This document shows positions 3,936 through 30,627 of a stretch of DNA of 64,000 nt, one piece after another; positions within the stretch are counted from its first letter, which is position 1, and every line of letters starts with the position of its first letter. Source of the DNA: an uncultured Thermoleophilia bacterium (lineage in GTDB: Bacteria; Actinomycetota; Thermoleophilia; UBA2241); the NCBI GenBank assembly GCA_963702475.1, contig CAVPCT010000002.1:350009-414008 (forward strand), read 5' to 3'. The notes under the pieces are model-generated. The model saw only the letters and a list, made by a program, of their open reading frames with translations. It had not been told where the DNA came from and did not search any database. The translations under genes were made by a program, and so were the position numbers.

Positions 3936-3997
3936 TTGACTTCGGCACATCCTTGAGATAGTCTCCGCTATAACTTCGTATACGAACTCTGATACGT
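3936..3997 (+). promoter_or_regulatory. Promoter plus operator, copy 1
   Basis: TTGACT (3936-3941)-N17-TAGTCT (3959-3964), then AACTTCGTATACGAACTC-TG-ATACGT. Confidence 0.85.
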
Positions 3998-4348
3998 AGT
4001 TGGTTCCGAGAGTCGGTCGCGCAAACGAGAAGGTGTGTCGAGAGAAGACTCCCGCCGCGGTGCTCGTCGCACCGCCTTGAACCACTGACCACTGCTCCCC
4101 CCTGGCAGGATGGAAGTGGCGCGGGAGGGCGGCCCTTGGCCCCAGCCTTGCGACAGGGCGCCGGCCGGATCGCTGGTGGCAGCAGCGGCCGGCGCCGGAC
4201 GACGGGGCATGGCCGCCGGACCGGCGGGGAGGCTCCACAGGAGGTCCCCATCGCTCCCACGCGGCGCGTCCTTCGCGCCATGATGGAGACGGAGCCTTCG
4301 CCGGCGAGCCGGAGGCGCCGTCCGCCGCGAGCGGGCGGCGCCTCCGGC
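3970..4348 (+). ncRNA. Candidate structured leader or sRNA from promoter copy 1
   Basis: No convincing ORF; several stems with G-U pairs favouring the + strand; ends in an 18-bp hairpin. Confidence 0.3.
4308..4348 (+). terminator. Strong GC hairpin (terminator-like)
   Basis: GCCGGAGGCGCCGTCCGC-cgcga-GCGGGCGGCGCCTCCGGC followed by AGTTT. Confidence 0.5.
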
Positions 4349-4368
4349 AGTTTCCAGGGCGCGGACTC

Positions 4369-4428
4369 TGGACTTCGAGAGCGGCCTGCGGTACCTTGAG
4401 GTAACTTCGTATACGAACTCGGATACGT
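4369..4428 (+). promoter_or_regulatory. Promoter plus operator, copy 2 (drives operon 4458-14078)
   Basis: TGGACT (4369-4374)-N17-TACCTT (4392-4397), then AACTTCGTATACGAACTC-GG-ATACGT. Confidence 0.85.
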
Positions 4429-4457
4429 TGATTGCTCAGCACACCTGGAGCGGCCAT

Positions 4458-5409
4458 ATGACAGACACCGGAAGAGTCCTCATCGTCGGCGCCGGCACGA
4501 TGGGGGAGGGGATCGCGCAGACGTTCGCCCAGCACGGGTCCGGCGTCCGCCTCGTGGACATCAACGACGAGTCCGTCTCCCGCGCGCTCGGTCAGATCAA
4601 GCGCAACGTCCTGCAGTTCGCCGACTTCGGGCTCATCAAGGAGCCCGTCGACCAGGTGATGGGCCGCATCGAGGGCATGGTCACCACCGACATGGCACGG
4701 GCGGCCGACGGCTGCACCTACGCCGTCGAGGCCGTCCAGGAGATCCTCGAGCAGAAGCTCGACCTGTTCGCCCGGCTGCAGGCGGCCGCCCCCGAGCTGG
4801 CCATCGGCAGCAACACGGGCAGCTTCACCATGGACACGCTCGTCCGAGGGGCTGCCCCGCCCCGACAGGGTGATCGGCATCCACTACTTCAACCCGGCGC
4901 ACATCATCCCGCTGGTGGAGATCCACCGTGGCAGCGCCTGCTCGGACGCGACCTACGAGGAGACGAAGACCCTGCTCGAGGCCTCGGGCAAGAAGACGGT
5001 GCTGGTGCGCGTCGAGCGTCCCGGCTTCATCGTCAACCGTCTCATGGGGGCCCTTGAACGCGAGATCGACTACCTCCTCGACGAGGGCATCGTGACGCCC
5101 GAGGACCTGGACGTCGCCGTGAAGTCGAGCACCGGTTTCCGCTTCGCCTGTCTCGGGCCCATGGAGGTGGAGGACATGATCGGCCTCGACATCGCCGCGA
5201 CGGTGTCGGGACGCGTCTTCAAGGGCCTCTCCAACGCCACCGAGCCGTCGCCCATGCTGCTCGAGAAGGTCGAGCGCGGCGAGCTCGGGATCAAGGCCGG
5301 CAAGGGCTGGTACGACTACAGCGGCAGGACGCGTGCGGAGGTCCTGGAGGAGAAGAACGCCAAGCTGCTTCCGCAGCTCAAGCTGTTCCTGGACGCGCAG
5401 AAGGACTGA
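4458..5409 (+). CDS. 3-hydroxyacyl-CoA dehydrogenase family protein (frameshift near 4860); candidate 3-hydroxy-5-oxohexanoate dehydrogenase
   Basis: GAGTMGEGIA Rossmann motif, EAVQE, SNTGS, then HYFNPAHIIPLVE, PGFIVNRL and GELGIKAGKGWYDY in the next frame. Confidence 0.88.
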
Positions 5410-5450
5410 AGGCCGGGGAACCCGGTCGCCCGCAGACTGAAGGAGGTCCG

Positions 5451-6206
5451 GTGTTCGATCTTACGGGCAAGGTTGCGATCGTGACCGGCGGCGGCGGCGG
5501 CCTGGGCCGTCCCATCTCGGTCGCGCTGGCGCAGTGCGGCGCCGACGTGCTGGTCGACGACTTCGACGCCGATCACCTGGCGGCGACGGTCGCCGAGATC
5601 GAGGCGCTGGGGCGCAGGTGCGTGGCCGTCACGGCCGACCTCACCAGCGCCGCCGCCATGAAAGACATGGCCGACAGGGCCGTGCAGGAGTTCGGCAGGA
5701 TAGACATCCTCGTCAACGTGGCCGGCACCAACGCGCGGTTCGACGCCGAGGCGATGCCGCCCGAGGAGTTCGAGCGCGTCCTCCGCGTCAACGTGCTGGG
5801 CGTGTTCCTGGCCTGCCAGGCGGTCGGCCGGGTCATGATCGAGCAGGGGCAGGGCGTGATCGTCAACATGTCGTCGGTGAGAGGGAGGGTCGCTCCCGGC
5901 ATGGGCGGCTCGGCCTACGCCACGAGCAAGGGCGGCGTGGACCAGCTCACGCGCACGCTGGCGGCCGAGTGGGCCAAGTACGGCATCCGTGTCAACGCCG
6001 TGGCGCCGGCGCTGATCATGACCGACATGACCCGCGATTTCCTGTCCAAGCCCGAGGTCTACTCCAAGATGACCGCCGAGATCCCGATGCGGCGCCTGGG
6101 CGAGCCGGGCGAACTGGTCGGGCCGGTCGTTCTGCTGGCCTCGGACGAGTCCAGCTTCATGACCGGCCAGATCGTCTACGTCGACGGCGGGCTCTCCGCC
6201 GTCTGA
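5451..6206 (+). CDS. SDR oxidoreductase, phloroglucinol-reductase-like
   Basis: TGGGGGLG, catalytic Ser in NMSSVRGR, YATSK, VDGG; specific activity inferred from recalled similarity and context. Confidence 0.85.
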   Translation: MFDLTGKVAIVTGGGGGLGRPISVALAQCGADVLVDDFDADHLAATVAEIEALGRRCVAVTADLTSAAAMKDMADRAVQEFGRIDILVNVAGTNARFDAEAMPPEEFERVLRVNVLGVFLACQAVGRVMIEQGQGVIVNMSSVRGRVAPGMGGSAYATSKGGVDQLTRTLAAEWAKYGIRVNAVAPALIMTDMTRDFLSKPEVYSKMTAEIPMRRLGEPGELVGPVVLLASDESSFMTGQIVYVDGGLSAV

Positions 6207-6248
6207 TCCGCGGCCGGACGCTCGAGACCCGATGGGAGGGCACGACGT

Positions 6249-6590
6249 GTGAAGAAGATCGCGCGCGCGGACGTGACGAAGTACGGCGTCCCGCCCAAGC
6301 ACTTCAACGTCAACTCCTGCCGTCTGCAGGGCGAGGCCGAATCGGGGCTCAAGAGCTTCTGGATCGGCTGCTCGCACTACCTGCCCGGCGGCGGCATCGA
6401 GTGGTCGGGCGAAGATTCCGCCGAGGAGAAGGTCTCCATCGTCATCGAGGGCGAGCTCACGGTGAAGGGGGAGGACGAGGAGTTCGCGCTCGGGCCGCTC
6501 GACTCCCTCTACATCGGCCCCAACGAGGCCCGGTCGGTCGTCAACAACGGCACCAGACCGGCCATCATGCTGGTGGTCGTCAACACCTGA
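6249..6590 (+). CDS. Cupin domain protein
   Basis: 113 aa; SHYLPGGG...EKVSIVIEGEL...DSLYIGPNEARSVVN cupin pattern with the usual His ligands largely replaced. Confidence 0.8.
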   Translation: MKKIARADVTKYGVPPKHFNVNSCRLQGEAESGLKSFWIGCSHYLPGGGIEWSGEDSAEEKVSIVIEGELTVKGEDEEFALGPLDSLYIGPNEARSVVNNGTRPAIMLVVVNT

Positions 6591-6619
6591 TGGGTCCTGT
6601 GCCGGCCGAGGAGCGAGAC

Positions 6620-9208
6620 GTGAAGCAGGCCGTACGGCTCACGAACCTCACCACCGGCGGTCCGGTGCACGTCGACGTGCGCGACGGCAGGATCCTGCGC
6701 ATGGTCCCCCTTGAGCTGGACGAGAGCGACGGGCCGTCGTGGAGCATCACGGCGAGGGGGCGCACGTTCACGCCTCCCCGCCGCACCACGCTCTCACCGT
6801 TCACCGTCGCTCACCGCTCCACCATCTACTCTCCCCGGCGCATCCTCACGCCGCTCAAGCGAGTTGACTTCGACCCCGCGGGCCAGCGCAACACGCACAA
6901 CCGCGGCAGTTCAGGTTACGAGCCCATCTCGTGGGACGAGGCCCTGGACCTCACCGCCGGCGAGATGACGCGCCTCAGGCGCGAGCACGGCCCGGCCGCC
7001 ATGCTGACCTCGCCCGGCTCCCACCACCTGTGGGGGACCCACGGCTACCGCACCAGCGCCTACTACCGCTTCATGGACCTCGTCGGGTTCACGTACGGAG
7101 AGCACAACCCGGACAGCTGGGAGGGCTGGCACTGGGGCGGCATGCACATGTGGGGCTTCAGCTGGCGCCTCGGCATCCCCGAGCAGTACGACCTCCTCGA
7201 GGACGCGCTGCAGCACACCGAGCTGCTCGTCTTCTGGTCTTCCGACCCTGAGAGCACCGGCGGCGGCATCTACACGGCCTTTGAGAGCACGCCCAGGCGG
7301 TACTGGTTCAAGGAGCTGGGCGTGAAGATGGTCTTCATCGACCCGTACTTCAACCACACGGCCGAGCTCTTCGGCGACAAGTGGTTCGCGCCGCGGCCGG
7401 GCACCGACGTGGCGATGGGGCTGGCGATCGCTTCCACGTGGCTCTCCGAGGGCCTCTACGACGAGGAGTACGTGGTTACGCGCACCGTCGGCTTCGACGA
7501 GTGGAAGGACTACGTGCTCGGCAGGACCGACAACGTGCCCAAGACGCCGGAGTGGGCCGAGGGGGAGTGCGGCATCCCGGCGCGCCAGATCCGCGCCCTG
7601 GCGCGCGAGTGGGGCACGAAGAGGACCATGCTGGCCGCCGGCGGCAAGGGCGGGTTCGGCGGCGCCTGTCGCTCGGCCACCGGCAACGAGTGGGCGCGCA
7701 CCATGATCGCCCTCGCGGCCATGCAGGGCTTGGGCAAGCCGGGCGTCAACATCTGGTCGACGACGCAGGGCGTACCCTGCGACACCGGCTTCTGGTTCCC
7801 CGGCTACAACGAGGGCGGCATCTCGGCCGACGCCAACACCCTGAGCGGCTTCCGTCTGGCCAATCGTCTCTGGCCGGACGGAGGCCCGTGCGGCAACCCG
7901 CACCACTCCACCGAGGGCCAGACTGTCAGCCGTCTCCTCATCCCCGAGGCCATGAGGGGCCAGAGCCTCGAGTGGCGGGGCAAGGGCTTCTGCGGCTCCT
8001 CCATCGAGTCGCAGTTCCAGAAGTACGAGTACCCCGCCCCCGGCTACGACCCGTGCCGTATGTACTACAGGTACGGCGGGTCCTTCATCGGCACCATGAC
8101 CGAGACCAACCGCTACGTCCGAGCCTACCGCGAGGGCGACGTCGAGTTCGTGGTCAACCAGTCGATCTGGTTCGAGGGCGAGGCGCGCTTCGCCGACGTC
8201 ATCCTCCCGGCGTGCACCAACTTCGAGCGCTGGGACATCGGGGAGTGGGCGGCGCCCACCGGCGCCGGGGCGTCGTCCACCGACGCCTGCAACCACCGCC
8301 TCATCGTCTTCCAGCAGAAGTGCATCGAGCCGCTCGGCGAGTCGAAGCCGGACTACGAGATCTTCGCCCTCCTCGCCGGGCGCCTCGGCCTCGGCCACCT
8401 GTACACCCAGGGCCTCACCGACCTGGACTGGGTCAAGCGGCTGTTCCTCGCCAGCGACCTGCCGCAGCGGATCTCCTGGGACGACTTCGCGCGCAAGGGC
8501 TACTACGTGGTGCCCGTGCCTCCGGAAAGGAAGCGCACCCCGGCGCTGCGCTGGTTCGCGGAAGACCGCGAGCGGGACACGCCGGACCTGGGGCCCAGAC
8601 CGTGGGAGACCGATCGCCTCAAGGGCCTGCAGACGGCGTCGGGCAGGATCGAGTTCGTCGCTTCCAGCCTCCGGCGCTTCGAGCGCTCCGGGGCCGTCGA
8701 CCCCGAACGGCCCGCGCTGGGGCCGCAGTACATCCCCAGCTGGGAGGGCCACCGCACGGCGGAGCTCGTGGCCCGGTACCCGCTGCAACTCATCAGCCCG
8801 CACCCGCGCTTCTCGTTCCACACCATGGGCGACGGCAAGGGCTCGTGGACCGACGACGTCGCGGACCACCGCGTGCTCGTCGACGGCCACCACTACTGGA
8901 TCCTTCGCCTGAACAGCGCCGACGCGCGGGCGCGCGGCGTCGCCGACGGCGACCTCATCCGGGCCTTCAACGACCGCGGCGAGGTCATCCTCGCCGCCCA
9001 GGTCACGGAGCGCGTGGGCCCCGGCACCGTGCACTGCTACGAGTCGGTCGCCGACTATCTCCCGCTGGGAGAGCCGGGCCACTCGCCGGACGCCGCCGGC
9101 TGCATCAACATCCTCACGCCCAAGCGGTTTGTCACCCCGACCTCGACCGGCATGGCGCCCAACTCCTGCCTCATCCAGGTGGAGCGGTGGGAGCCGGCAC
9201 CGGTCTGA
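6620..9208 (+). CDS. Mo-bisMGD oxidoreductase, pyrogallol hydroxytransferase large-subunit (AthL) family, paralog 1
   Basis: GTG start after GAGGAG; N-terminus VRLTNLTTGGPV, SHHLWG, HNPDSWEGWHWGGMHMWGFSWRLG (Ser Mo ligand), FPGYNEGG, SPHPRFSFHT; no Tat signal and no N-terminal Fe-S Cys motif. Confidence 0.93.
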   Translation: MKQAVRLTNLTTGGPVHVDVRDGRILRMVPLELDESDGPSWSITARGRTFTPPRRTTLSPFTVAHRSTIYSPRRILTPLKRVDFDPAGQRNTHNRGSSGYEPISWDEALDLTAGEMTRLRREHGPAAMLTSPGSHHLWGTHGYRTSAYYRFMDLVGFTYGEHNPDSWEGWHWGGMHMWGFSWRLGIPEQYDLLEDALQHTELLVFWSSDPESTGGGIYTAFESTPRRYWFKELGVKMVFIDPYFNHTAELFGDKWFAPRPGTDVAMGLAIASTWLSEGLYDEEYVVTRTVGFDEWKDYVLGRTDNVPKTPEWAEGECGIPARQIRALAREWGTKRTMLAAGGKGGFGGACRSATGNEWARTMIALAAMQGLGKPGVNIWSTTQGVPCDTGFWFPGYNEGGISADANTLSGFRLANRLWPDGGPCGNPHHSTEGQTVSRLLIPEAMRGQSLEWRGKGFCGSSIESQFQKYEYPAPGYDPCRMYYRYGGSFIGTMTETNRYVRAYREGDVEFVVNQSIWFEGEARFADVILPACTNFERWDIGEWAAPTGAGASSTDACNHRLIVFQQKCIEPLGESKPDYEIFALLAGRLGLGHLYTQGLTDLDWVKRLFLASDLPQRISWDDFARKGYYVVPVPPERKRTPALRWFAEDRERDTPDLGPRPWETDRLKGLQTASGRIEFVASSLRRFERSGAVDPERPALGPQYIPSWEGHRTAELVARYPLQLISPHPRFSFHTMGDGKGSWTDDVADHRVLVDGHHYWILRLNSADARARGVADGDLIRAFNDRGEVILAAQVTERVGPGTVHCYESVADYLPLGEPGHSPDAAGCINILTPKRFVTPTSTGMAPNSCLIQVERWEPAPV

Positions 9209-9247
9209 GTCCCTCAGTCCCACACCCGACCAGGAAGAGCCACGACC

Positions 9248-10063
9248 ATGGATCCCATCATCACCGCCTCGCTCACCGGCCCGGCCGCCACCAAGAAGGA
9301 CAACCCGGCGATCCCCGGGACGCCGGAGGAGATCGCGCGGAGCGCCGGGGAGGCCTACGACGCCGGCGCCGCCGTCATCCACATCCACCTGCGCGACAAC
9401 GACGACTTCACGACCGACCTCGAGGTGGCGCGGCGCACCGTGGAGCTGGTGCGCGAGCAGTGCCCGGGGATCGTTCAGCTCTCCACCGGGGGTGGGTTCG
9501 AGTACGAGGACCGCATGCGCATCGTCGAGGCGAGACCGGCGATGGCCACCCTGAACCCGGGCACCATGACGATCGGCGACCACGAGTTCCGCAACCCGCC
9601 CAGGCAGATGTACAAGCTCGCCGAGCGCATGCTCGAACTGGGCATCAAGGCCGAGGTGGAGATCTACGACACCGGCCACCTCGGCCTCGCCCTGGACCTG
9701 CTCAAGAAAGGGCTTCTCACCGAGCCGCTGCAGGTCTCGTTCGTGATGGGCGTCAAGGGCGGCATGCCGGCCGACCCGCGCCTGCTCGGCTACCTCGTCA
9801 ACGAGCTCCCGGCCGGCACCAGCTGGCAGGTGATCGCCATCGCGAAGGCCAACCTGCCGCTCACCACCATCGGCCTGGCCATGGGCGGCAACGCTCGCAC
9901 CGGCCTTGAGGACACGCTCTACATCAGGCCGAAGGAGCTCGCCTCGTCCAACGCCCAGCTCGTCGAGGCGCTGGTGAACGTGGCGCGCTCGCAGCACCTG
10001 GAGCCCGCGGGAGTCGAGGAGGTCATCGACCGCCTCAAGCTCAACCGCGACCTGATCGGGTGA
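9248..10063 (+). CDS. Beta-keto acid cleavage enzyme (BKACE/DUF849, Kce family)
   Basis: IITASLTG, AGAAVIHIHLRD (Zn HxH), STGG, EIYDTGH, RTGLED. Confidence 0.92.
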   Translation: MDPIITASLTGPAATKKDNPAIPGTPEEIARSAGEAYDAGAAVIHIHLRDNDDFTTDLEVARRTVELVREQCPGIVQLSTGGGFEYEDRMRIVEARPAMATLNPGTMTIGDHEFRNPPRQMYKLAERMLELGIKAEVEIYDTGHLGLALDLLKKGLLTEPLQVSFVMGVKGGMPADPRLLGYLVNELPAGTSWQVIAIAKANLPLTTIGLAMGGNARTGLEDTLYIRPKELASSNAQLVEALVNVARSQHLEPAGVEEVIDRLKLNRDLIG

Positions 10064-10095
10064 CGGAGCAAACCGAGGACCTGGGGGAGGCCGAG

Positions 10096-10945
10096 ATGGC
10101 GGAGCAAGACTACGTGCACATGCCGTCGCTGGAGGAGTACTCGAAGCGGTTCGAGCGCTTCTTCAAGTTCACGCGGTCCGACGACGGCATCCTCGAGGTG
10201 CGGATGCACACATGCGACGGTCCGGTGCGCTGGAGCTACCAGATGCACCACGCCATCTCGGAGCTCTGGACGGCCGTCGGGCACGACGTCAAGAACGAAG
10301 TGCTCATCTTCACGTCCACCGGCGACCAGTGGATCAACGAGGTGGACGCTTCGTCCTTCAAGGATGTCGAGCAGTCCGACGACGACGACCAGCGTTTCAA
10401 CGTCCAGATCTACGACACCCTCAAGGTCGTCGAGAACTTCGTCAACGACATCGAGATCCCGACGATCTGCGCCGTCAACGGCCGCGGCATCCACTGGGAG
10501 ATGGCGATGATGAGCGACATCACGCTCTGCACGCCGGACTTCATCCTGCAGGACGACCACTTCGTGATGAAGGGCGGCCACGTGCCCGGCGACGGCATGA
10601 CGATGGCCTTGCAGCAGGTCCTCGGCATCAAGCGCGGCAACTACATGAGCTACACCAACGCGGGCATCGACGCCGAGACCTGCCTCAAGCTCGGCGCGGT
10701 CAACGAGATCGTCGAGCGCGAGCGCATCGTCGAGCGCGCCTGGGAGCTGGCGCGCATGATCATGAAGACCAACCGCTCCACTCGCCGCCTCACCCACCAC
10801 GTCGCCGTGCGGCCGTGGCGCGAACTGGTGGAGCAGAACCTGCGCCAGCACGTGTACGCGGAGATGTACTCGTTCAACCTGGTCAAGTCGTCCCACGACT
10901 TCGACTCAGATCGCCTACTGCGACGACAAGATGGCGGAGATGTGA
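10096..10945 (+). CDS. Crotonase-superfamily beta-diketone hydrolase (6-oxocamphor hydrolase-like), paralog 1; frameshift near the 3' end
   Basis: EVRMHT..W, AVNGRGIHWE, QDDHF, VPGDG and YAE match the OCH pattern; corrected end HDF...IAYCDDKMAEM-stop. Confidence 0.85.
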
Positions 10946-10966
10946 GGAACGGAAGGAGACCTGACC

Positions 10967-11822
10967 ATGGCGATGCAGCCGTACGTGCACGTGGAGACCG
11001 CTCGAGGAGTACGCAGAGCGGTTCAAGGACTTCGCCCACCTGGAGCGCAACGACGAGGGCATCCTCTTCTGCCGCCTCCACTGGAAGGGCGAGGCCTGCG
11101 TGTGGAGCTACCAGACCCAGAACGCCTACGGCGAGCTCTGGACGGCCATCGGTCACGACAAGGAGACCGAGATCGTCATCCTCACCTGCGCCGACCCCTA
11201 CTGGATCACGCAGCGCAGCGACCCCGCCTCCTTCGACGAGGTCGAGGACTCAGACTCCACCACGCTCAAGTACAACTGCAACGTGCCCGACACGATGAAC
11301 TTCGTCGAGAACTTCATCAACGACATCGAGGTGCCGGTCATCACGGCCATCAACGGCATCGGCCAGCACTACGAGTTCGGGCTCATGGCCGACATCTGCA
11401 TCTGCGACCCGGACTTCTACTTCTCGGATGCGCACTTCTCGCACAACATCGTCCCGGGCGACGGCATGAACTTCTCCTACCGTATGTGCCTGGGGCAGAG
11501 GCGCGCCTCGTACATGGCGTACATGGAGCCGAAGATCGACGCGCAGACCGCCCTGGCGTGGGGGCTGGTCGACGAGATCGTCGCCCACGACGAGCTCGTC
11601 CCGCGCGCCTACGAGATCGCCCGGCATATCCTCAAGACCGGCCGGGCGGTCCGCCGCCTCACGCACGAGCTCGTCATGCGCCCGTGGAAGCGCTTCCTGC
11701 AGGACGACGAGCGCGTGCGCGTGCTGGCCGAGATGTACGCCGTCCAGCTCGAGGCCACCCGGCACAACTTCGCCAAGATCGCCGCCGACTTCACCGGGGG
11801 GCGGCCCCAGCACAAGAAGTGA
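10967..11822 (+). CDS. Crotonase-superfamily beta-diketone hydrolase (OCH-like), paralog 2; frameshifts near the 5' end
   Basis: AINGIGQHYE, SDAHF, VPGDG, LAEMY; clear paralog of the upstream gene. Confidence 0.85.
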
Positions 11823-11973
11823 GCGGCGTGCCTGCGGACCGCCGCTCCACGCCTCACCTGCGGTGGGAATCGAGCACGGCGGCGAAGACCGTGAGGCCGG
11901 GACCCCACCCTGAGGGGGTCCCGGCCGCCGTCCGCCGGGACCAGCCACGACACTCCCTGGATAGAGGTGGCAG

Positions 11974-12672: not shown

Positions 12673-12677
12673 GAGCC

Positions 12678-14078: not shown

Positions 14079-14194
14079 CACCGCTCGGAGGCGGTGCGCC
14101 CGCTGCGGGGCGCCGCCGGCCGGCGCCCCGTCCGTCCCGACGACGGGACGGTTGGAGCGGTCGTCGCCCCAAGAAGATAGGCAGCGGGATGGTG

Positions 14195-14250
14195 TTGACT
14201 TCCCTCCGGACGAGCGGTAGTCTGCGATAACTTCGTATACGAACTCGCAT
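14195..14250 (+). promoter_or_regulatory. Promoter plus operator, copy 3
   Basis: TTGACT (14195-14200)-N17-TAGTCT (14218-14223), then AACTTCGTATACGAACTC-GC-AT. Confidence 0.85.
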
Positions 14251-14293
14251 TCTAGTAGGCCTGTCGCTAGTTCCAGGGGGGTGTCGAAGCCTC

Positions 14294-14352
14294 TTGACTC
14301 TCACGCAGGCGGGCGCTACGCTCTGATACTCCGTATACGAACTCGGATACGT
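14294..14352 (+). promoter_or_regulatory. Promoter plus operator, copy 4 (drives operon from 14416)
   Basis: TTGACT (14294-14299)-N17-TACGCT (14317-14322), then TACTCCGTATACGAACTC-GG-ATACGT. Confidence 0.85.
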
Positions 14353-14415
14353 AGTGAGGGCGCGTCCCGTCATGACCCGTGCCGACCAACATCGACTCCG
14401 CTGCGAGGGATACAG

Positions 14416-15461: not shown

Positions 15462-15531
15462 GACTGACACGCCGGACGACGATCGGCCGCCCGGCTTGGC
15501 TGGACTGCACCTTCGGAAAAGGAGACAAGTC

Positions 15532-17902: not shown

Positions 17903-17915
17903 GCCGGTCTGACCA

Positions 17916-20714: not shown

Positions 20715-20735
20715 GCGAGGAGGTGAGAGAACTTC

Positions 20736-23274: not shown

Positions 23275-23276
23275 CA

Positions 23277-24107
23277 ATGACCCGGTATGGGATGGTGATC
23301 GACGTCGACAGGTGCGTGGGGTGCTACAACTGCTTCCTCACCTGCCGCGACGAGTACGCCGGCAACGCGTACCCCGGCTACTCCGCCCCTCAGCCGATGA
23401 GCGGCATGGACTGGATGAAGGTCAACGAGATCGAGCGCGGGCAGTACCCGCACGTCAAGGTCGACCACGTGCCCGTGACCTGCGCGCACTGCGACTCCGC
23501 CGTCTGCGTCACCCTGGACCAGACCGGGGCCATCTCACCGGCGCGCGGACGGCATCGTGCTGATCGACCCGGAGAAGGCCAAGGGCAACAAGGGCCTGGT
23601 GGCGCTGTGCCCGTATCGCCAGATCGAGTGGAACGAGGAGCTCCAGCTGGCGCAGAAGTGCACCCTGTGCGCGCACCTGCTGGACGCGGGCGACCCGGAG
23701 CCCCGCTGCGTGGAGTCCTGCCCGAGCGGGGCGATCGATCTTCGGCGACCTCGACGACCCCAGCAGCAAGGTCGCCGCGCTGGTGGCCTCGGGGACCGAG
23801 GTCGATTCACCCCGAGTACGCGATGGGCGAGAAGGTCACGTACAAGGGCCTGCCCAAGAAGTTCGTCGCCGGCACCGTCGTCTACGGCGACGTGGACGAG
23901 GTCGCCGCCGGGATCGACGTGGTGCTGACCGGCGACGGCGTGAGCGAGACCATGAAGACCAACGGCTTCGGCGACTTCGAGTTCGACGGCCTCGCGGACG
24001 CCGCCACCTACACGGTCACCGTCGAGGCGCCGGGCTACGCGCCCGCCACCCTGAAGGCCACGACGCGCAGGGACCTCTACCTGGGCGAGATCGTCCTGCA
24101 GAAGTAG
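23277..24107 (+). CDS. Transhydroxylase-type Fe-S small subunit (AthS/RehS-like) with C-terminal beta-sandwich domain; internal frameshifts
   Basis: MVIDVDRCVGCYNCFLTC, CAHCDSAVC, DGIVLIDPEKAKG, CPY, QKCTLCAHLLD, PRCVESCP, TNGFGDFEFDGL. Confidence 0.9.
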   Translation: MTRYGMVIDVDRCVGCYNCFLTCRDEYAGNAYPGYSAPQPMSGMDWMKVNEIERGQYPHVKVDHVPVTCAHCDSAVCVTLDQTGAISPARGRHRADRPGEGQGQQGPGGAVPVSPDRVERGAPAGAEVHPVRAPAGRGRPGAPLRGVLPERGDRSSATSTTPAARSPRWWPRGPRSIHPEYAMGEKVTYKGLPKKFVAGTVVYGDVDEVAAGIDVVLTGDGVSETMKTNGFGDFEFDGLADAATYTVTVEAPGYAPATLKATTRRDLYLGEIVLQK

Positions 24108-24113
24108 GCCGGC

Positions 24114-25564
24114 ATGCCTGGGATCACAGCATACGGAGCGTACATCCCGCTGCACCGGCTGAGCCGGGCGGAGATCGCGCGGGCGTGGGGCGGCAAGGCG
24201 GCCCCGGGCGAGCGCGCGGTCGCGAGCTACGACGAGGACAGCCTCACCATGGCCGTGGCCGCGGCGCGGGACTGCCTCAGGGACGCGGACCGCGCCACGG
24301 TCGGCGCGGTGTACTTCGCCTCCACCACGGCGCCCTACAAGGAGAAGCAGTCGGCCGCCGACCATCGCGTCGGTGCTGGACCTGCCGCCGGACACGGCGA
24401 CCGCGGACTTCGGCGGCTCGCTGCGCTGCGGCACCAACGCCCTCAAGGCGGCGCTGGACGCGGTGGCGGCCGGGAGCGCGCAGAGCGTGCTGGTCTGCGC
24501 CGCGGACATGCGCCTCGGGCTACCCCGCCGGCCCCGGCGAGATGAACTTCGGGGACGGCGCCGTGGCGCTGCTGGTCGGCGCCGGCGAGACGCTCGCCGA
24601 GGTCGAGCACTTCGACAGCCGCTACTGGGAGATCCAGGACACCTGGCGCTCGGACCAGGACACCTTCGTGCGCACGGCCGAGGACCGCTTCTCGATGGAC
24701 GAGGGCTACGCCGACGTCATGGTGCACAGCGTGGCGGCGGCCCTCGAGAAGTACGGGCTGGCCGCCGCCGACGTGGCGCACTTCGCCTTCAACGCCCCCA
24801 ACGTGCGCCAGGTCAAGGGCGTCGCGAAGAAGCTCCGCTTCGACGAGCAGACCCAGGTCAACGACGTGCTGCACGCGTCGGTGGGCGACACGGGCTGCGC
24901 CGCGAGCCTGCTCAGCCTGGTCGCGGCGCTGGAGCAGTCCAGGGGCGGCGAGACGATCCTCCTGGCCTGCTACGGCAACGGCTGCGACACCGCCGTCCTG
25001 CGGACGACGGACCGCGTCGGCTCCGTGCCGGCCTGTCGCGGCGTGCGCGGGCACATCGAGTCCCGGCGCGAGCTGAGGAACTACGAGCAGTACCTGCGCT
25101 GGCGCGGGCTGCTCCCGATCCAGCCGGCCGCGCGCCCGCCCGTCGAGGAGCGCATGCCCTCGCCGGCGGCCCAGTGGCGCGAGGTGCCCTGGGAGATGCG
25201 GCTCACGGGCACGAGGTGCCTGCACTGCGGCACGCCGCAGTACCCGCCGCAGCGCGTGTGCGTCACGTGCCACACCAAGGACGAGATGGAGCCGTACCGG
25301 TTCACCGACGTGCCGGCGAGGCTGTTCTCGTTCTCGCACGACTACGTGATGGAGACCCTGGACACGCCGGTCACCGTGACCTTCGTCGACTTCGAGGGCG
25401 GCGGCCGCCTCATGTGCGACATGACCGACCGCGACCCGGACGAGGTCGCGGTCGGCATGCCCCTCGAGATGTCGTTCCGCCGTCTCTACTACGTGAACGG
25501 CGTCTACAACTACTGGTGGAAGTGCCAGCCGGTCAGGTGCCGGCAGACCGGGACCGAGGTGTGA
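24114..25564 (+). CDS. HMG-CoA-synthase-like domain fused to Zn-ribbon/OB-fold (DUF35); PhlA+PhlB-like; two frameshifts
   Basis: GITAYGAYIP, DEDSLTMAV, DFGGSLR, GDGAVA, YGNG; C-terminal CLHC...CVTC, VDFEGGGR, YWWK. Confidence 0.85.
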
Positions 25565-25566
25565 CC

Positions 25567-26753
25567 GTGGAGAGCATCAAGGACAGAGTCGCGATCGTCG
25601 GCATGGGCTGCGTCAAGTTCGGCGAGAACTGGGGCCAGAGCCTCGAGGACATGATCATCGACGCCGCCTACGAGGCGTTCGAGGACGCCGGCATCGGGCC
25701 GGACGACATCCAGGCGGCGTGGTGGGGCACGGTGTTCGCCGGCCACACCGGCCAGATCCTGGCCGCGCCGCTCAAGCTCGCCTACATCCCCGTCACGCAC
25801 GTCGAGAACGCCTGCGCGACGGGCTCCGAGGCCATCAGGAACGCCTGCTACGCGGTGGCCGCCGGCCAGTACGACATCGTGCTCGCCGTCGGCGCCGAGA
25901 AGCTCAAGGACTTCGGCTACTCCGGCCTGCCGCAGACGCGGCCGGTCGCCACCTGGAGCTACCGGCTCACCACCCAGACGCCGGCGGCCGGGTTCGCCAT
26001 GATGGCCACCGCCTACTTCGCCAAGTACGGGCTCGAGTACGACGTGGGCAAGGACCTCCTCGGGCAGATCGCCGTCAAGAACCACCACAACGGCTCGCTC
26101 AACCCCAAGGCCCACTTCCAGCGCGAGATCACGCCTGGAGCAAGGCCGTCAACGCGCCGATGATCGCCTGGCCGCTCGGGCTGTTCGACTGCTGCGGCGT
26201 GAGCGACGGCGCGGCGGCCGCGGTCATCACCCGGGCCGACCTGGCCAAGAAGTTCCGGCCGGACCCCATCTACATCAAGGCCGCGCAGATCTGCCAGGGC
26301 CCGCGCGAGGGCTGGCTCAGCCAGGTCTACGACCTCGCGCACGTGGAGGAGACGTACCGCGGCGGCCAGGCCGCCTACGCGGAGGCCGGCATCAAGGACC
26401 CGCGCAAGGAGATCAGCATCGCCGAGGTGCACGACTGCTTCTCCATCACCGAGCTCACGATCATGGAGGACCTGCAGTTCAGCCCGCGGGGACGCGCCGG
26501 CGAGGACATCGAGGCCGGCACGTTCGCCATCGAGGGCGAGCTGCCGGTGAACACCGACGGGGGCCTCAAGTGCTTCGGCCACCCCATCGGTGCGACCGGC
26601 CTGCGCATGCTCTACGAGGTCTACAAGCAGCTGCAGGAGAAGGCCGGGCCTCGGCAGGTGAAGGACCCGCGCCTCGGCCTGACCCACAACCAGGGCGGCG
26701 AGCCCGGGTCCGCCACCGTCAGCGTCATCATCGCCGGCAACGAGCTGGGCTGA
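25567..26753 (+). CDS. Thiolase-like acetyl-CoA acetyltransferase (SCP2/PhlC-type); frameshift near 26135
   Basis: VAIVGMG, VENACATG (catalytic Cys), AVKNHHNG, SDGAAA, EVHDCF, NTDGGLKCFGHPIGATG, HNQGG. Confidence 0.9.
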
Positions 26754-26767
26754 GGGGGCCGAGGCTA

Positions 26768-26827
26768 TTGACTTCCCGGGGAGCCCGCACTACGATGTGG
26801 CAACTTCGTATACGAACTCGCATACGC
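26768..26827 (+). promoter_or_regulatory. Promoter plus operator, copy 5 (marR, autoregulatory position)
   Basis: TTGACT (26768-26773)-N17-TACGAT (26791-26796), then AACTTCGTATACGAACTC-GC-ATACGC. Confidence 0.85.
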
Positions 26828-26829
26828 AC

Positions 26830-27412
26830 ATGAAAACGTCCCCAGACAGCATGGCCGCGAGCGTGGTCGACGACCACAAGGGCCCAACGGGATCGGAGGG
26901 CGAATTGCCCGTCACAGAGTCTCGCTCGGTCTCCGACGAGTACTTCATGCTGTGGGTGCTGATCGCCCAGACCAAGGACGCGATCCTGCGTGCGCGAGAG
27001 CTCGAGTACGCGCGCTACGGCATCAGCAACGAGCGGCGCGCGATCCTGGCCATCATCCAGCGCAACGGCGGCCGCAGCACCCCGGTGGACATCGCCCGGG
27101 ACCTCTTCCGCGAGCTCCACTCCGTCACCGAGATGCTCGTGCGCATGGAGCGGGACGGCCTCATCGTGAGGCACAAGGGGACGGGCCGGTCCAAGGTGGA
27201 GGTCAGCCTCACCGAGCAGGGCCTCGACGTCTTCCACCAGTCCCTGAACAGCGAGGCGGACAGCAGGATCTTCTCGGTGCTCACCAAGAAGCAGCGTGAG
27301 CGCCTCTCGCAGTACCTGTGGAAGCTGCGCGGCAGGACCATGGAGCATCTCGGCATCCCCGAGTGGCAGCTCACCTTCCTGCCCGCAGCCCGACGAGAAG
27401 GAGGGACCCTGA
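26830..27412 (+). CDS. MarR family transcriptional regulator (probable frameshift at the 3' end; raw ORF runs to 27588)
   Basis: YGISNERRAIL, TPVDIARDL, SVTEMLVRMERDGLIVR, VSLTEQG winged-helix pattern. Confidence 0.88.
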
Positions 27413-27589
27413 CGCGCGCGACCGGGGCGGTCGCGCCGGCGGCCTGTGAGGGGCCGTCGCACAGGCGTCCACGACGAGGACGGACCGAAGGAGGCTGGTA
27501 TTCACCGAGGGGGTTCGATCAAGGTGTCACGACGCAAGCTGCATCGCACGGAGCACCAAGGAAGAGTCATGGCAAACAGGGGGAGTGAT

Positions 27590-28674
27590 ATGAAGAGTTC
27601 GAAATGGGCCATCGTGCTGCTGATCGTCATCCTGGCGGTGAGCCTCTCGGTCGTGCTCGCCGCCTGCGGCGGCGACGAGCCGGCGGCGGAGGAGTCCGCG
27701 GCGGCCGTCGAGGACACGGGCCAGACGTGGGACCTCAAGTTCAGCTACCCGACGCCTGAGCGCGCCAGCCTCGTACCGGCGTACCTCGTGCCGTGGAGCG
27801 AGGCCGTCACCATGGCCACCGACGACCGCGTGAAGATCACCCACTACGCCGAGAACTCGCTGGTCAAGGAAGAGCAGCAGTGGGACGCCCTGCTCTCGGG
27901 CACGTCGGACATCGCCCTGATCGAGCCGGAGTTCAACCCCGGCATGTTCCCGATCTCGGAAGTCGGCTCGCTGCCGTACCAGTTCCCGGACGCGGTCACG
28001 GCCGCCAAGACGTTCTGGGACGTCGTCACCCAGAAGGCCCAGGATGAGTGGAAGGACGTGCAGGTCCTCGGCGTGACGGTCATCGCGCCGGCCCAGTACC
28101 GCGGCAACGTCGAGGTCAAGGGCGACGTCACCAAGTTCGAGGGCACGCGCATGCGGTCCGGCGGCACGGATCGAGACCTGGATCGTCGAGGCGTTCGGCG
28201 CGACCCCGGTGGAGATCGGGACCGGCGACCTCTCGACGTCGCTCGAGCGCGGCATGGCCGACGGCGCCTTCCTCAGCTACTCGCTGATCCTGGCCATGGC
28301 CAAGGACTTCACCAAGTACACGACCGAGTGCAACATGTTCTATCGCTGCTGGGTCATCGCGATGAACAAGGACGTCTGGAACTCCATGCCGACGACCGTC
28401 CAGGACCAGATCATGGGCGTGAGCGGGCAGGAGGGCTCGGCCAAGTACTCGGCCGCCAACGCCGGAGTCGAAGCGGCGAGAAGAAGGGCCTCGAGGGCGC
28501 CGACAAGGGCATGGGCAATCCGCCGATCTACGTGCTGACCGCGGCGAGCTCGCCACGTGGACCGAGGCGTGCCAGCCGGTCATCCAGAAGTGGATCGACC
28601 AGCTGTCCGACCCGGCGACCGGCCAGGAGGTCATCGACTTCATCGCCGCGCAGAACGCGACCTACGCCCAGTAA
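27590..28674 (+). CDS. TRAP transporter substrate-binding lipoprotein (DctP family); frameshifts
   Basis: Signal peptide with lipobox LAAC; PGMFPISEVGSLPY, GTRMRSGG, LERGMADG, MNKDVWNSMP. Confidence 0.85.
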
Positions 28675-28687
28675 GCGACACGTGACT

Positions 28688-28728
28688 GACGGCCGGCCCC
28701 GGCCCAGTCCTCGCCGGGGCCGGCCGTC
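28688..28728 (+). terminator. Hairpin after dctP (stabiliser or attenuator)
   Basis: GACGGCCGGCCCCGGC...GCCGGGGCCGGCCGTC. Confidence 0.5.
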
Positions 28729-28752
28729 CCATACAGCAGTGAAGGGACGCCT

Positions 28753-29310
28753 ATGAACGAACATGGACGACCGGAGGGTGACGCGGCGCTGCCGGCCTCA
28801 GGGCTGGTGCGGTTCGCCGACTCGTTCGAGGCCCTCCTCGGGAAGATCTACACGGCCGATCGCGTGGGTCGGGGCCGCCACCTTGGCTGCGCTGGTCGTG
28901 GCGATGTTCTGCTCCGTCATCGGGCGCAGGTTCTTCAACTCCCCGCTGGAGGGCTCCGGGGACATCATCGAGATGTCGCTGCTGATCATGACCGCCACGG
29001 TCCTGGGCCTGGAGCACCTCGGCCACGAGAAGATGACCGTCGACATCCTCAGCAAGCAAGTTCTCGAAGAAGGCGCAGGCGATCATCGCTCCGTCATCTA
29101 CTGCCTCGCCATCGCCATCCTGTGCCGTGGCGTTCTAGAGTTGATGGTGTGGGCCGGCAAGCTCTTCGAGCGCGGCGAGACCACGCCCGGGCGTGCTGGA
29201 GCTCCCCAAGTACCCCTTCGCCTACCTGATCGCGTTCGGGATCCTCACGCTGGTCCCCATCTACGTGGTCCGGCTGCTGCGGGCCATCGGACGAGGTGAG
29301 GCGGCCATGA
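28753..29310 (+). CDS. TRAP small permease (DctQ); frameshifts
   Basis: VIGRRFFNSPLEGSGDI, HEKMTVDIL, GETT...LELPKYPF; about 4 TM segments. Confidence 0.8.
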
Positions 29311-30627
29311 GCACCCTTCCGCTGTGGGCCTGCGGCATCATCGGCGCGGGGGTCTTCTTCGGCCTCATGTTCCTCAAGCTCCACGTCGGCCTCTCGATGA
29401 TGATCGGCGGGTTCGTGGGCTTCATCCTGACCCGGGGTCTGCCGGCCGCAGAGATCGACCCTGCGAGGACGATCTTCGAGGTGTCCACCTCGCCGATCCT
29501 GGTCATCATCCCGCTGTTCGTGCTGATGGGCGTCATCGCGGGGGCCGGCGGAGTCATCGCCGCCGCGTTCGAGACCTTCGACAAGTGGCTGGGGCACCTG
29601 CGCGGCGGCCTGGCCATGGCCACCGTGGGCGCGTGCGCCGCGTTCGGGGCCGTGTGCGGCGACAACATCGCCACGGCGGTGACGATGAACAAGGCGGCCC
29701 TGCCCGCAGATGCGGAAGCTGGGGTACGACGACAAGCTCTCCTTCGGCTCCATCGCCGCCGGCGGCAACCTCGGCATCCTGATCCCGCCGAGCGCCGCGT
29801 TCGTGGTGTACGGCTTCATCACCGAGAACAACATCGCCAACCTGTTCGTCTCGGGCATCCTGCCCGGCATCATCCTGACCGCGATGTTCATGGTCGACGA
29901 TCGCGATCTGGTGCAAGCGTGACCCGAGCCTGTCCTCGAAGCACGAGCCCCAGACCCATGAAGGTCAGGCTGGCCTCGCTGCAAGGGGCTGATCGGCATC
30001 GTCGCGGTGTTCGTGCTCGTGATGGGCGGCCTCATGGGCGGCGTCTTCACGCCGCAGGAGGCCGGCGCCGTGGGTACGGTCGCGATGATCGTCGTGAGCC
30101 TCTTCTACAGGCAGCTCACGTGGAAGAAGCTGGGCCACGCCCTGGTGGAGTCGACGAAGACGTCCGCCATGATCCTGCTGCTCATCATGGGGGCGAGGTA
30201 CTTCAGCTACTTCATCACCACGACGGAGCTGCCGCAGACGCTCTCCGACCTGATCCTCAACGCGAACCTCAACGGCTACATCGTGATCATCCTGGTGTGC
30301 ATCCTGTGGATCATCCTGGGCATGCTCATGGACATCTGGTCGGTGATGATCATCACGCTGCCGATCTTCTACGGCATCCTGCTCACCCTGGGGTTCGACC
30401 CGCTGCAGCTGGGCGTGATCGTGGTGCTGTGCATCATGCTGGGCTGCGTCACCCCGCCGGTGGGCGTGGTGGTGTTCTCGCTGGCCGGCATGCACAGGGA
30501 CGTGCCGATGTACACCATCTTCAAGGGTGTCTGGCCGTTCATCTACGCGATGGTCATCTTCCTGCTGATGATCATCTTCATCCCTTGGATCAGCACGTTC
30601 CTGCCTAGCCTCGTGGTACCAGGCTAG
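29307..30627 (+). CDS. TRAP large permease (DctM); frameshifts
   Basis: IPLFVLMG, GHLRGGLA, GGNLGILIPPS, FTPQEAGAVG, TPPVG. Confidence 0.88.

Follow-up and report, generated by a model that had tools for sequence, protein, structure and literature searches.

A predicted MarR operator unites a Thermoleophilia gene island that may serve phloroglucinol-type degradation of polyhydroxylated aromatic acids

The closest described counterpart of the locus reported here is the anaerobic phloroglucinol pathway of Clostridium scatologenes, which comprises the enzymes PGR, DPGC, TfD and TAL (Zhou et al., mBio 2023, PMC10470551). We compared this and related systems with a gene island in 64,000 nucleotides of DNA from an uncultured Thermoleophilia bacterium (GenBank assembly GCA_963702475.1, contig CAVPCT010000002.1, positions 350,009 to 414,008), a stretch that we call the window. 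Island and C. scatologenes pathway are alike in that a short-chain dehydrogenase/reductase (SDR), a 3HCDH-family enzyme and a beta-keto-acid cleavage enzyme (BKACE) cluster with a thiolase, a transporter and a regulator, and the two appear to share a logic of ring reduction, retro-Claisen opening, oxidation and a second C–C cleavage. They differ in that the island holds two crotonase-fold genes resembling 6-oxocamphor hydrolase (OCH) instead of the cyclase-family DPGC, carries an NAD-type motif rather than TR(S/N) in its SDR, would gain ATP through an ADP-forming acyl-CoA synthetase, not through phosphotransacetylase and acetate kinase, and has no CoA transferase; in addition, it contains three AthL-type subunits with one AthS, an amidohydrolase-2, a NicX-fold protein, a lactonase and a cupin. 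AthL-family hydroxylases are likewise combined with hydroxybenzoate uptake and decarboxylation in Aromatoleum anaerobium and Thauera aromatica AR-1, in gene clusters for the anaerobic degradation of resorcinol and 3,5-dihydroxybenzoate. Those routes continue oxidatively via hydroxybenzoquinone with nitrate, whereas the downstream genes of the island are of the reductive phloroglucinol type.

The genome bin (G000; 4.3 Mb in nine contigs, C1–C9, about 70% GC, 93.8% complete, 6.5% contamination) carries the window as the final 64 kb of contig C2. In the following, G009 denotes a sister genome from the same family, f1 the own family, f4 a sister family, and L numbers (L009 and so on) the loci of relatives, except for L045, L046 and L047, which are stretches of G000 itself. 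A Pfam scan of the plus-strand open frames, complemented by tblastn with intact orthologues, revealed 21 co-oriented island genes at 4458–30627, all on the plus strand and directly following genes for RNase E/G, L21, L27 and ObgE (obgE, 2505–3779). The count becomes 20, the figure given in an earlier, sequence-only reading of this DNA, when the two synthetase subunits are taken as one. That reading's family and fold assignments (three AthL, AthS, SDR, 3HCDH, BKACE, ADP-forming synthetase, OCH-like pair, NicX fold, lactonase, TRAP, MarR) held wherever they were tested.

On balance, we favour reading the island as a MarR-repressed gene set for the uptake of polyhydroxylated aromatic acids and their oxygen-independent, phloroglucinol-type ring degradation. 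The data show protein families, conserved residues, gene order, operator and distribution; the substrates, the order of the steps and the ring-opening protein, as given below, are inferred. A TRAP system would import a carboxylated polyphenol, from which the amidohydrolase-2 would strip a carboxyl group ortho to a hydroxyl, unless it hydrolyses a cyclic beta-diketone instead. Three AthL-family molybdenum subunits with one common AthS might then shift hydroxyls to yield a 1,3,5-oxygenated ring, which the SDR would reduce to a cyclic beta-diketone, probably with NADH as cofactor in this strain. The two OCH-like crotonases would open the ring by retro-Claisen hydrolysis in place of a cyclase-family DPGC, and the 3-hydroxyacyl-type dehydrogenase and BKACE, with acetyl-CoA, would convert the 3-hydroxy-5-oxo acid to acetoacetate and acetoacetyl-CoA. 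A thiolase would finally yield acetyl-CoA and the ADP-forming synthetase ATP and acetate, with the NicX-fold metalloprotein and the beta-propeller lactonase acting as presumed conserved partners of the pathway. The pairing of dehydrogenase and BKACE links this scheme to a ring type, as it would imply a 3-hydroxy-5-oxo acid as the opened product and thus a ring of the phloroglucinol type.

A perfect 12-bp palindrome, TTCGTATACGAA, starts at window positions 3975, 4406, 14232, 14330 (one mismatch) and 26805, giving five matches versus 0.01 expected, a number reached in none of 100 shuffles; the whole 4.3-Mb genome holds just nine sites with up to one mismatch, five of them in the island. Among the remaining genomic sites, one is located upstream of the MarR gene in a second island copy on C9, and a palindrome site at C9:20694 extends the motif. 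Every palindrome in the window lies 7–10 nt downstream of a −10-like hexamer (TAGTCT, TACCTT, TACGCT or TACGAT), spaced 17 nt from TTGACT or TGGACT, and thus at the position expected for a repressor. Site P1a (3936–3986) consists of TTGACT (3936–3941), a 17-nt spacer, TAGTCT (3959–3964) and the palindrome (3975–3986), and P1b (4369–4417), which ends 41 nt before the start codon of the dehydrogenase, of TGGACT (4369–4374), a 17-nt spacer, TACCTT (4392–4397) and the palindrome (4406–4417). P2a follows from 14195 (TTGACT at 14195, TAGTCT at 14218, palindrome at 14232–14243), P2b extends to 14341 (TTGACT at 14294, TACGCT at 14317, one-mismatch palindrome at 14330–14341), and P3 (26768–26816; TTGACT 26768–26773, TACGAT 26791–26796, palindrome 26805–26816) is located upstream of marR. 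These operator copies behind promoter-like pairs point to three transcription units (4458–14078, 14416–26753 and 26830–30627), two of them with tandem promoter/operator sites, and to a MarR-type regulon that joins all three by a predicted operator–repressor pairing, in agreement with the three operons under one operator that the sequence-only reading had described.

The palindrome is kept in 20 of 33 relatives' loci (L009–L041), all 20 of them actinobacterial, and in the loci checked it closely precedes a gene for a transporter, an amidohydrolase, MarR or a dehydrogenase; G009 carries two copies upstream of its dehydrogenase orthologue (L009 8284 and 8538, 254 nt apart). The regulator itself (26830–27588) is intact, matches Pfam MarR_2 at 4.1e-5 (below the cut-off) and shares 71% identity over 155 aa with the MarR of L014. 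It would bind TTCGTATACGAA overlapping each transcription start and would presumably be released by a phenolic compound of the pathway. Its open frame exceeds the 165-aa L014 orthologue by about 85 codons and reaches the start of dctP, which may reflect a stop lost through an assembly indel or a real extension. Between P1a and P1b, a stretch of about 420 nt (3987–4405) holds a GC-rich hairpin with 18-nt arms (4308–4348); this stretch gave neither a coding signal by third-codon-position GC (GC3) nor an Rfam match, and it lacks conservation in G009. In the sister family, genes for a NarL/LuxR-type response regulator and a HisKA_3 kinase stand between the modules (L014 3106–5151, L019 7255–9231, L025 3852–5717), and in L019 the OCH-like gene is preceded by one of the IclR family. 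Since the island in the window lacks such two-component and IclR genes, regulation has been rewired.

The first unit opens with the dehydrogenase gene (4458–5409; TfD-like by position), whose Pfam 3HCDH_N and 3HCDH domains lie in two frames; the intact 316-aa G009 orthologue returned two tblastn pieces, with a frame break near 4841–4862 and a 1-nt insertion at 4841 relative to L009. For TfD, PMC10470551 describes loss of the CoA-binding Lys56 and Asn221 and retention of the His/Ser/Asn catalytic residues. The candidate ring reductase, an intact SDR of 251 aa (5451–6206; Pfam adh_short), has relatives in at least 120 environmental clusters (69–92% identity, nearly all 251 aa); its PDB matches included no PGR, and database names were generic. 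After beta-strand 2 it reads VLVDDFD, an NAD-type motif, compared with VVVTSRR in the SDR of a canonical phloroglucinol-type cluster on contig C3 of the same genome. A confinement of NAD-type SDRs to OCH-bearing clusters was ruled out, as L049, L054 and L012/L055 pair OCH-like genes with a TSR-type SDR. The intact small cupin gene that follows (6249–6590; 113 aa, Pfam Cupin_2) has no counterpart in the orthologous operon of G009; most sister-family loci have one, as does the C3 cluster.

Downstream of AthL1, an intact, TAL-like BKACE gene (9248–10063; 271 aa) scores 284 bits against Pfam BKACE and remains below all four NCBIfam BKACE equivalog cut-offs. The protein is 69–71% identical to two paralogues in the same genome, and its clustering with a 3-hydroxyacid dehydrogenase and a candidate ring reductase, seen in gene order and in the loci of relatives, assigns it to the BKACE family, not to TAL specifically. 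The unit closes with the ADP-forming acyl-CoA synthetase. Its beta (ATP-grasp) subunit (11974–12672) is intact and scores 291 bits against Pfam ATP-grasp_5 and 211 bits, below the cut-off, against the NCBIfam archaeal acetate--CoA ligase; the gene for its alpha (CoA-binding/ligase) subunit (12669–14078; Pfam CoA_binding_2 and Succ_CoA_lig across frames) shows 12 single-base insertions and one deletion relative to G009. Lysine fermentation and carnitine catabolism, brought up by NCBIfam matches of the BKACE and 3HCDH proteins, were dropped, given that partner genes are lacking and the neighbours are AthL-type enzymes.

OCH from Rhodococcus (1O8U) and the beta-diketone hydrolase from Anabaena (2J5G) cleave cyclic beta-diketones without CoA, and the two island hydrolases share their crotonase fold. 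Hydrolase 1 (10099–10964; frame break near the 3′ end, around 10908) finds these two enzymes as its best PDB matches (2j5g, 5e-35; 1o8u, 5.3e-34), followed by an enoyl-CoA hydratase at 5.4e-11 only. It retains the residues aligned to OCH His122, His145 and Asp154, positions that we checked in the alignment and take to be catalytic; OCH Glu244 lies outside the aligned stretch. Hydrolase 2 (10967–11822; breaks around 10998, where a soil short-read contig omits the base, and near 11680) is 45–46% identical to hydrolase 1, and its orthologues in G009 and L019 retain the His/His/Asp positions. What sets the island enzymes apart from their characterized relatives is their arrangement as a tandem pair within a polyphenol cluster. 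No PF04199 cyclase-type DPGC was found in the island, all three PF04199 matches of the genome being located on C3 and C9, and three cyclase queries returned none of the 33 related loci; in one of eight sister-family loci, a cyclase-like gene follows downstream at a distance of several kb. An OCH-like gene, in turn, adjoins the dehydrogenase–SDR–cupin–BKACE–synthetase genes in L009, L018–L020, L037, L040 and all eight f4 loci. OCH-like genes consistently stand where the cyclase would be expected in this type of cluster, and their predicted role is ring opening. Cleavage of cyclic beta-diketones by OCH-type enzymes is treated in PMC11780191, and the sole dihydrophloroglucinol ring opener characterized in the literature we found is the cyclase-type DPGC of PMC10470551.

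AthL1 (6625–9208, start approximate) is intact and aligns end to end with the pyrogallol hydroxytransferase large subunit of Pelobacter acidigallici (PDB 4V4C), scoring 1167.8 bits over residues 11–868 of chain 4v4c_A with 848 residues aligned and an identity of roughly 60% by eye. It retains His144, Arg153, Asp174, Ser175 and Tyr404, with Trp354 replaced by Phe and Tyr560 by Ala; we take Ser175, next to Asp174, to be the molybdenum ligand and His144, Arg153 and Tyr404 to be pocket residues (numbering verified against the chain). AthL2 (18173–20714; Pfam AhtL-like_1st, Molybdopterin and Molydop_binding; one break around 20140–20200) and AthL3 (20736–23274; at least three frame breaks, with bases 20857/20858 and 21132 omitted in short-read contigs) keep Asp174, Ser175, His144 and Tyr404 and differ from the P. 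acidigallici enzyme in having Lys at position 153. The L014 orthologues of the two share 63% identity with one another and 47–52% with AthL1 (AthL2, 52%). The PF21423 match exceeds its cut-off in AthL1 and AthL2; in AthL3 it is divided between two frames. A single AthS-like iron–sulfur beta-subunit gene (23277–24107; Fer4_11 and CarboxypepD_reg; several breaks, bases 23736 and 23804 omitted in short-read contigs) follows AthL3, and none adjoins AthL1; like its P. acidigallici counterpart, its product has ferredoxin and Ig-like domains, but there are three alpha subunits for this one beta gene. The genome holds 16 PF21423 matches, and the pocket residues vary among 11 further AthL-family copies aligned with AthL1, that is, among at least 12 paralogues. 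As judged from sequence, the residue pattern marks family membership and not specificity for pyrogallol.

The second unit starts with the amidohydrolase-2 gene (14416–15461; Pfam Amidohydro_2 in two frames, two frame breaks), whose intact L014 orthologue finds LigW (4icm, 1.3e-22), ACMSD and gamma-resorcylate decarboxylase (2dvt) as its best PDB matches. The protein is predicted to be either of the ortho-hydroxybenzoate-decarboxylase type or a beta-diketone hydrolase, the family also including, according to PMC11780191, the ring-A beta-diketone hydrolase of anaerobic steroid degraders. Next comes an intact, strongly conserved 384-aa protein (15532–16686) without a sequence match in Pfam (E ≤ 1e-4), NCBIfam or the PDB. 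Its AlphaFold2 model (AF2; pLDDT 85.9) shows a NicX/M29-type metalloprotein fold: the top Foldseek match was NicX, the 2,5-dihydroxypyridine 5,6-dioxygenase (7cn3_A; E 1.5e-19, TM 0.60/0.67), followed by M29 aminopeptidases that score nearly as well, and its ESM Atlas neighbours are Pfam NicX clusters (score 0.95). The fold is common to both groups; identity to NicX is 14%, and the island type has orthologues in obligate anaerobes; its relatives (56–90% identity, 30 loci, several phyla) share many invariant His, Asp and Cys residues. It is followed by a seven-bladed beta-propeller lactonase (16717–17902; Pfam Lactonase in two frames, one break around 17340–17430). Candidates for the step catalysed by this pair are hydrolysis of triacetic acid lactone or of another pyrone or lactone, or an alternative ring hydrolysis.

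At the end of the second unit, a gene for an HMGCS-like domain fused to a DUF35 Zn-ribbon/OB domain (24114–25564; two breaks; 482 aa in L014) precedes a thiolase gene (25567–26753; one break around 26130). PDB matches of the fusion protein were 6esq_I (9.8e-31), PhlA 5m3k_A (4.2e-28), DUF35 6esq_E (1.1e-13) and PhlB (4e-4), and NCBIfam PRK04262 scored 208.7 bits with a cut-off of 244; the thiolase matched 6esq_A (2e-54) and PhlC (6.2e-27). The sequence-only reading had seen a PhlABC-like complex here. While the archaeal acetoacetyl-CoA thiolase/HMGCS/DUF35 complex (6ESQ) and PhlACB (5M3K) have the same three modules, 6ESQ outscores Phl for every part (110 versus 102 bits for the PhlA part, 54 versus 22–24 for PhlB, 189 versus 98 for PhlC), and a biosynthetic PhlACB function was dropped. 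Distinct from both, the HMGCS-like and DUF35 parts are fused in the island; the four Zn-ribbon Cys are invariant among the orthologues, no invariant Cys occupies the expected HMGCS nucleophile site in the aligned orthologues, and thiolase Cys83 and His338 are invariant in eight sequences. Behind marR, the third unit encodes the TRAP transporter subunits DctP (27590–28756), DctQ (28753–29299) and DctM (29307–30627), all broken, with the Pfam matches to DctP, DctQ and DctM spread over several frames; the DctP of L014 exceeds the NCBIfam TRAP_S1 cut-off.

Several findings weigh against our interpretation. All enzyme roles, substrates and the inducer rest on sequence inference from error-rich assemblies of metagenome-assembled genomes (MAGs), and no island enzyme reaches an NCBIfam equivalog cut-off. 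The SDR, which the sequence-only reading had taken for a phloroglucinol reductase, has Asp-Asp after beta-strand 2 and lacks the TR(S/N) motif that, according to PMC10470551, binds the NADPH 2′-phosphate in such reductases; its orthologues in the same type of cluster are of either DD or TSR type, and its identity to the C3-cluster SDR reaches only 48%. AthL1 is missing from many syntenic loci, and another paralogue resembles the P. acidigallici enzyme more closely in the pocket motifs that were compared: the C4 copy (C4:266736–269862), which has its own AthS, matches at every position. Ring opening could instead fall to the amidohydrolase-2, whose family includes a ring-cleaving beta-diketone hydrolase, or to the NicX-fold protein. 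The system had also been called complete, a description at odds with the missing cyclase-type DPGC and with the Pfam scan of the island, in which no acetoacetate-activating enzyme was seen. If the frame breaks discussed below were real, most of the island would be dead in this strain. Finally, anaerobic fermentation, as proposed from sequence alone, is unproven. The pathway belongs to an oxygen-independent type, but genes for a haem-copper oxidase subunit I (COX1, 541.6 bits) and for cytochrome bd subunit I (500.6 bits) show that the host is not an obligate fermenter. With these oxidases present, the cupin or the NicX-like protein may have an oxygen-dependent role in this host.

Nor is the island the organism's only system of this kind. 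The cluster on C3 (C3:564000–583999, L045), which the sequence-only reading had missed, combines an SDR with the TSRR motif, a 3HCDH enzyme, a cyclase and a BKACE, accompanied by cupin, AthL and AthS genes, IclR regulators and MobA/B. A third cluster (C9:162000–181999, L046) carries BKACE, AthL, ADP-forming synthetase, 3HCDH, SDR and another crotonase together with an OYE-type reductase, a SnoaL-like protein and an HpaB/AbfD-like protein. Since a canonical set exists elsewhere in the genome, the island is a paralogous variant without cyclase and not the sole phloroglucinol-type route. This setting raises the question of whether the C3 cluster handles phloroglucinol while the lower module of the island (SDR, OCH-like hydrolases, dehydrogenase and BKACE) acts on another ring. 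This might be hydroxyhydroquinone or 1,2,3,5-tetrahydroxybenzene, reduced with NADH, a phloroglucinol bearing substituents or a cyclic 1,3-dione that is not aromatic. That a single genome has three paralogous clusters centred on a BKACE speaks for different substrates, as do the NAD-type Asp-Asp motif of the SDR and the low identity to the C3 counterparts (34–39% for the dehydrogenase, 48% for the SDR). Desulfovibrio inopinatus reportedly has an NADH-dependent hydroxyhydroquinone reductase, which would fit this assignment. The gene for cyclohexane-1,3-dione hydrolase is moreover still unknown according to PMC11780191. We nevertheless regard a different ring as unlikely: the succession of dehydrogenase and BKACE suits, by chemical inference, a 5-hydroxy-1,3-dione (dihydrophloroglucinol) better than the products of dihydroresorcinol or dihydro-hydroxyhydroquinone, the BKACE is 69% identical to that of the canonical cluster, and orthologous SDRs in the same type of cluster also carry the NADPH-type TSR.

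The island passes a check that the sequence-only reading had proposed: its synteny recurs in many other genomes, with about 20 loci from related MAGs. With the NicX-like gene as marker, we found 30 loci in MAGs labelled Actinomycetes, Thermoleophilia, Gaiellales, Dehalococcoidia, Chloroflexia, Acidobacteriota, Desulfobacterales, Lachnospiraceae and Erysipelotrichaceae, and in Enterocloster hominis. The lactonase adjoins this gene in 25 of the 30, an AthL-family gene occurs in the same locus in 23 and parts of the lower module in 12; the full AthL2–AthL3–AthS–HMGCS/DUF35–thiolase run is present in 11, while others end too early to tell. Orthologues of hydrolase 2 are 80–97% identical in L009, L018–L020, L037 and L040 and 73% in an Acidobacteriota locus, and a class-wide sample contained the gene in 26 of 401 genomes (22/61 in f4, 2/28 in f5, 1/79 in f1). 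All eight f4 loci examined carry the module with OCH-like genes, although seven of them are the same contigs as earlier loci and hence not independent. Within the own family (89 genomes), OCH-like genes occur just in G000 and G009, and the NicX-like gene in G000, plus a 41% homologue in G057 as the only one among the 88 other genomes.

The earlier remark that no such cluster was known from this lineage did not stand, the island being widespread in the sister family, from which it appears to have spread horizontally. Its proteins are 75–92% identical to their f4 orthologues, whereas ObgE shares 76–79% identity with genus-mates and 52–55% with f4 genomes, and the DnaE core 86–95% and 64–65%, respectively. 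Because the island proteins are far closer to f4 than these markers, the island was very probably acquired from an f4-like donor. A broader picture, which we put forward only tentatively, is that the OCH-like proteins replace the cyclase DPGC non-orthologously, the NicX-fold protein and lactonase perform a new oxygen-free ring or lactone step, the AthL enzymes feed in hydroxybenzoates or lactone polyphenols, and the island spreads horizontally between soil and wetland lineages. The NicX-fold/lactonase pair is 56–90% identical across Actinomycetota, Acidobacteriota, Desulfobacterota and gut Firmicutes.

The same survey bears on whether two independent modules merely stand side by side, namely a lower, acetyl-CoA-yielding one and an upper one (TRAP, amidohydrolase-2, NicX-like, lactonase, AthL2/AthL3/AthS) for an unrelated lactone or ester polyphenol, for example of the ellagic-acid or coumarin type. 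In relatives, the order changes and different regulators (two-component system, IclR) intervene; in Acidobacteriota-, Desulfobacterales- and Chloroflexota-labelled loci, moreover, NicX-like, lactonase and amidohydrolase-2 genes occur without the lower module, in one case together with an esterase and a dienelactone hydrolase. As the loci span just about 20 kb, however, a module missing from one of them counts for little. Considering that all three units carry the same operator in this genome, that the palindrome is found upstream of both modules in relatives, and that the modules are adjacent in at least 12 of the 30 loci and directly fused in L048, we consider independence unlikely and retain the reading of one MarR-controlled pathway.

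Fourteen of the 21 island genes are interrupted by 1-nt frame breaks in the assembly, leaving the SDR, cupin, AthL1, BKACE, synthetase beta subunit, NicX-like protein and MarR intact. A Viterbi scan of GC3 phase found 333 breaks in 4.3 Mb (mean about 1.5 per 20 kb) and 12 in the 20-kb bin that holds the island, with another hot spot of eight breaks at the start of C9. From the G009 locus L009 (86–89% identity), most of whose genes are intact, the window differs by single-base indels; the majority are bases inserted in the window, 11 of them in the interval 13072–13886 alone. In two other metagenomes, short-read contigs omit one base at 10 or more sites (10998, 13687, 13695, 13703, 13886, 20724, 20857/20858, 21132, 23736 and 23804), several of which coincide with insertions relative to G009; these contigs stem from other samples and show the state of relatives, not of the window strain. 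The first 13 kb of C9 (C9:1–13057, L047) are colinear with window positions 17618–30605, from the 3′ part of the lactonase gene to DctM, at 88–92% nucleotide identity. This copy, which starts exactly at the contig end and is rich in frame breaks, is either a true paralogous copy or derives from a co-binned related strain (C9 accounts for 8.6% of bases). The break hot spots coincide with the two diverged island copies, and the breaks very probably arose as errors in the consensus of a long-read assembly, through competition between two similar copies or strains. Actual decay of the island, with real breaks and most genes pseudogenes, would be in line with 14 broken genes, a break density about eightfold above the genome mean and the broken second, diverged half-island on C9. 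It is nonetheless distinctly improbable in light of the nature of the breaks, all of them single-base indels without in-frame stops and with equally high orthologue identity on either side, of the roughly 333 such breaks throughout the assembly, and of independent short-read contigs lacking the extra bases at the same places, albeit in other samples.

We see very little room for a partly aerobic or micro-aerobic route in which the NicX-fold protein and/or the cupin is an O2-dependent ring-cleaving dioxygenase and the lactonase hydrolyses its product: the nearest solved fold is indeed that of the Fe(II) dioxygenase NicX, lactones are typical of aerobic trihydroxybenzene cleavage and the genome has COX1 and cytochrome bd, but the NicX-like protein has relatives at 56–68% identity in obligately anaerobic lineages (Lachnospiraceae, Erysipelotrichaceae, Desulfobacterales MAGs, Enterocloster hominis), is only 14% identical to NicX with the M29 hydrolase fold scoring nearly as well, and is surrounded by island enzymes of oxygen-independent types.

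The building blocks of the favoured pathway are known already, from the transhydroxylase and the reductive phloroglucinol pathway. As far as our literature searches show, the new elements are the apparent OCH-like replacement, the cross-phylum module of NicX-fold protein, lactonase and amidohydrolase-2, the tandem AthL2/AthL3 with one AthS, the MarR operator and the evidence of inter-family transfer; the literature found contained no paper on this gene combination, none linking OCH-like or NicX-like proteins to phloroglucinol-type pathways and none naming DUF6282, PF19799, PF26233 or NicX-like. Anaerobic ring turnover of tannins and flavonoids bears on carbon storage in peat and wetlands (the 'enzyme latch' debate) and on polyphenol metabolism in the gut, where the strongly conserved NicX-fold metalloprotein also occurs in human-gut Firmicutes. 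As material for cloning, the island supplies candidate ring hydrolases of an alternative type, besides a cofactor-variant ring reductase and AthL paralogues with varied pockets, and the 12-bp operator offers a handle for defining the regulon and building an inducer biosensor. The system is probably relevant ecologically, as nearly identical sequence occurs in metagenomes of 12 studies and in two RNA libraries. Approximately one-third of the 31-mers of window positions 14400–24399 was found in each of 16 DNA runs, and 20 rows from the 12 studies (wetland, soil, sediment) hold part of this interval. Contigs from the two metatranscriptome libraries cover all 30 bins of window positions 4400–24399, with 26 and 13 contigs at ≥99%, which demonstrates presence and not proven or regulated transcription. 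In peat, Actinomycetota genera including RBG-16-64-13, which may or may not be the lineage of the window, express flavonoid-cleaving genes according to PMC12203004.

At the borders of the island, Pfam and tRNA scans found no integrase, transposase or tRNA, and searches of the whole window returned neither Rfam matches nor tRNA genes. Downstream, an intact CitMHS_2 carboxylate transporter gene and an MFS gene split over two frames (30676–34496) are co-oriented with the island and have no operator copy upstream; the genes beyond the frame-broken MFS gene are unrelated. G009, used for several of the comparisons above, holds two ObgE copies on its own contigs (C9:7026–8306 and C17:29719–30999; 79% and 78% identical to that of the window), which suggests that this bin, too, mixes two strains.

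Outside the Actinomycetota, the NicX-like gene occurs in other settings. In an Acidobacteriaceae MAG (L029 1396–16264), it and the lactonase gene are flanked by genes for an amidohydrolase-2, two MFS transporters, a TonB-type outer-membrane barrel, a radical-SAM/SPASM protein, an EstA-Ig-like esterase and a dienelactone hydrolase. In gut Firmicutes (L041 9030–20179, L033 937–11167, L032 and L038), including Enterocloster hominis and a Lachnospiraceae MAG, NicX-like genes with 56–60% identity neighbour a CitMHS transporter, LysR, DUF6282, a PIG-L-family hydrolase and up to three RraA-like aldolase-family genes, along with a 2-oxoacid:ferredoxin-oxidoreductase (POR)-like gene. L033 additionally has BKACE and 3HCDH genes 8 kb away, and L033 and L034 each carry two NicX-like copies. 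The acidobacterial and gut settings point to carboxylated lactone or ester substrates, and the gut locus looks like an undescribed anaerobic catabolic cluster.

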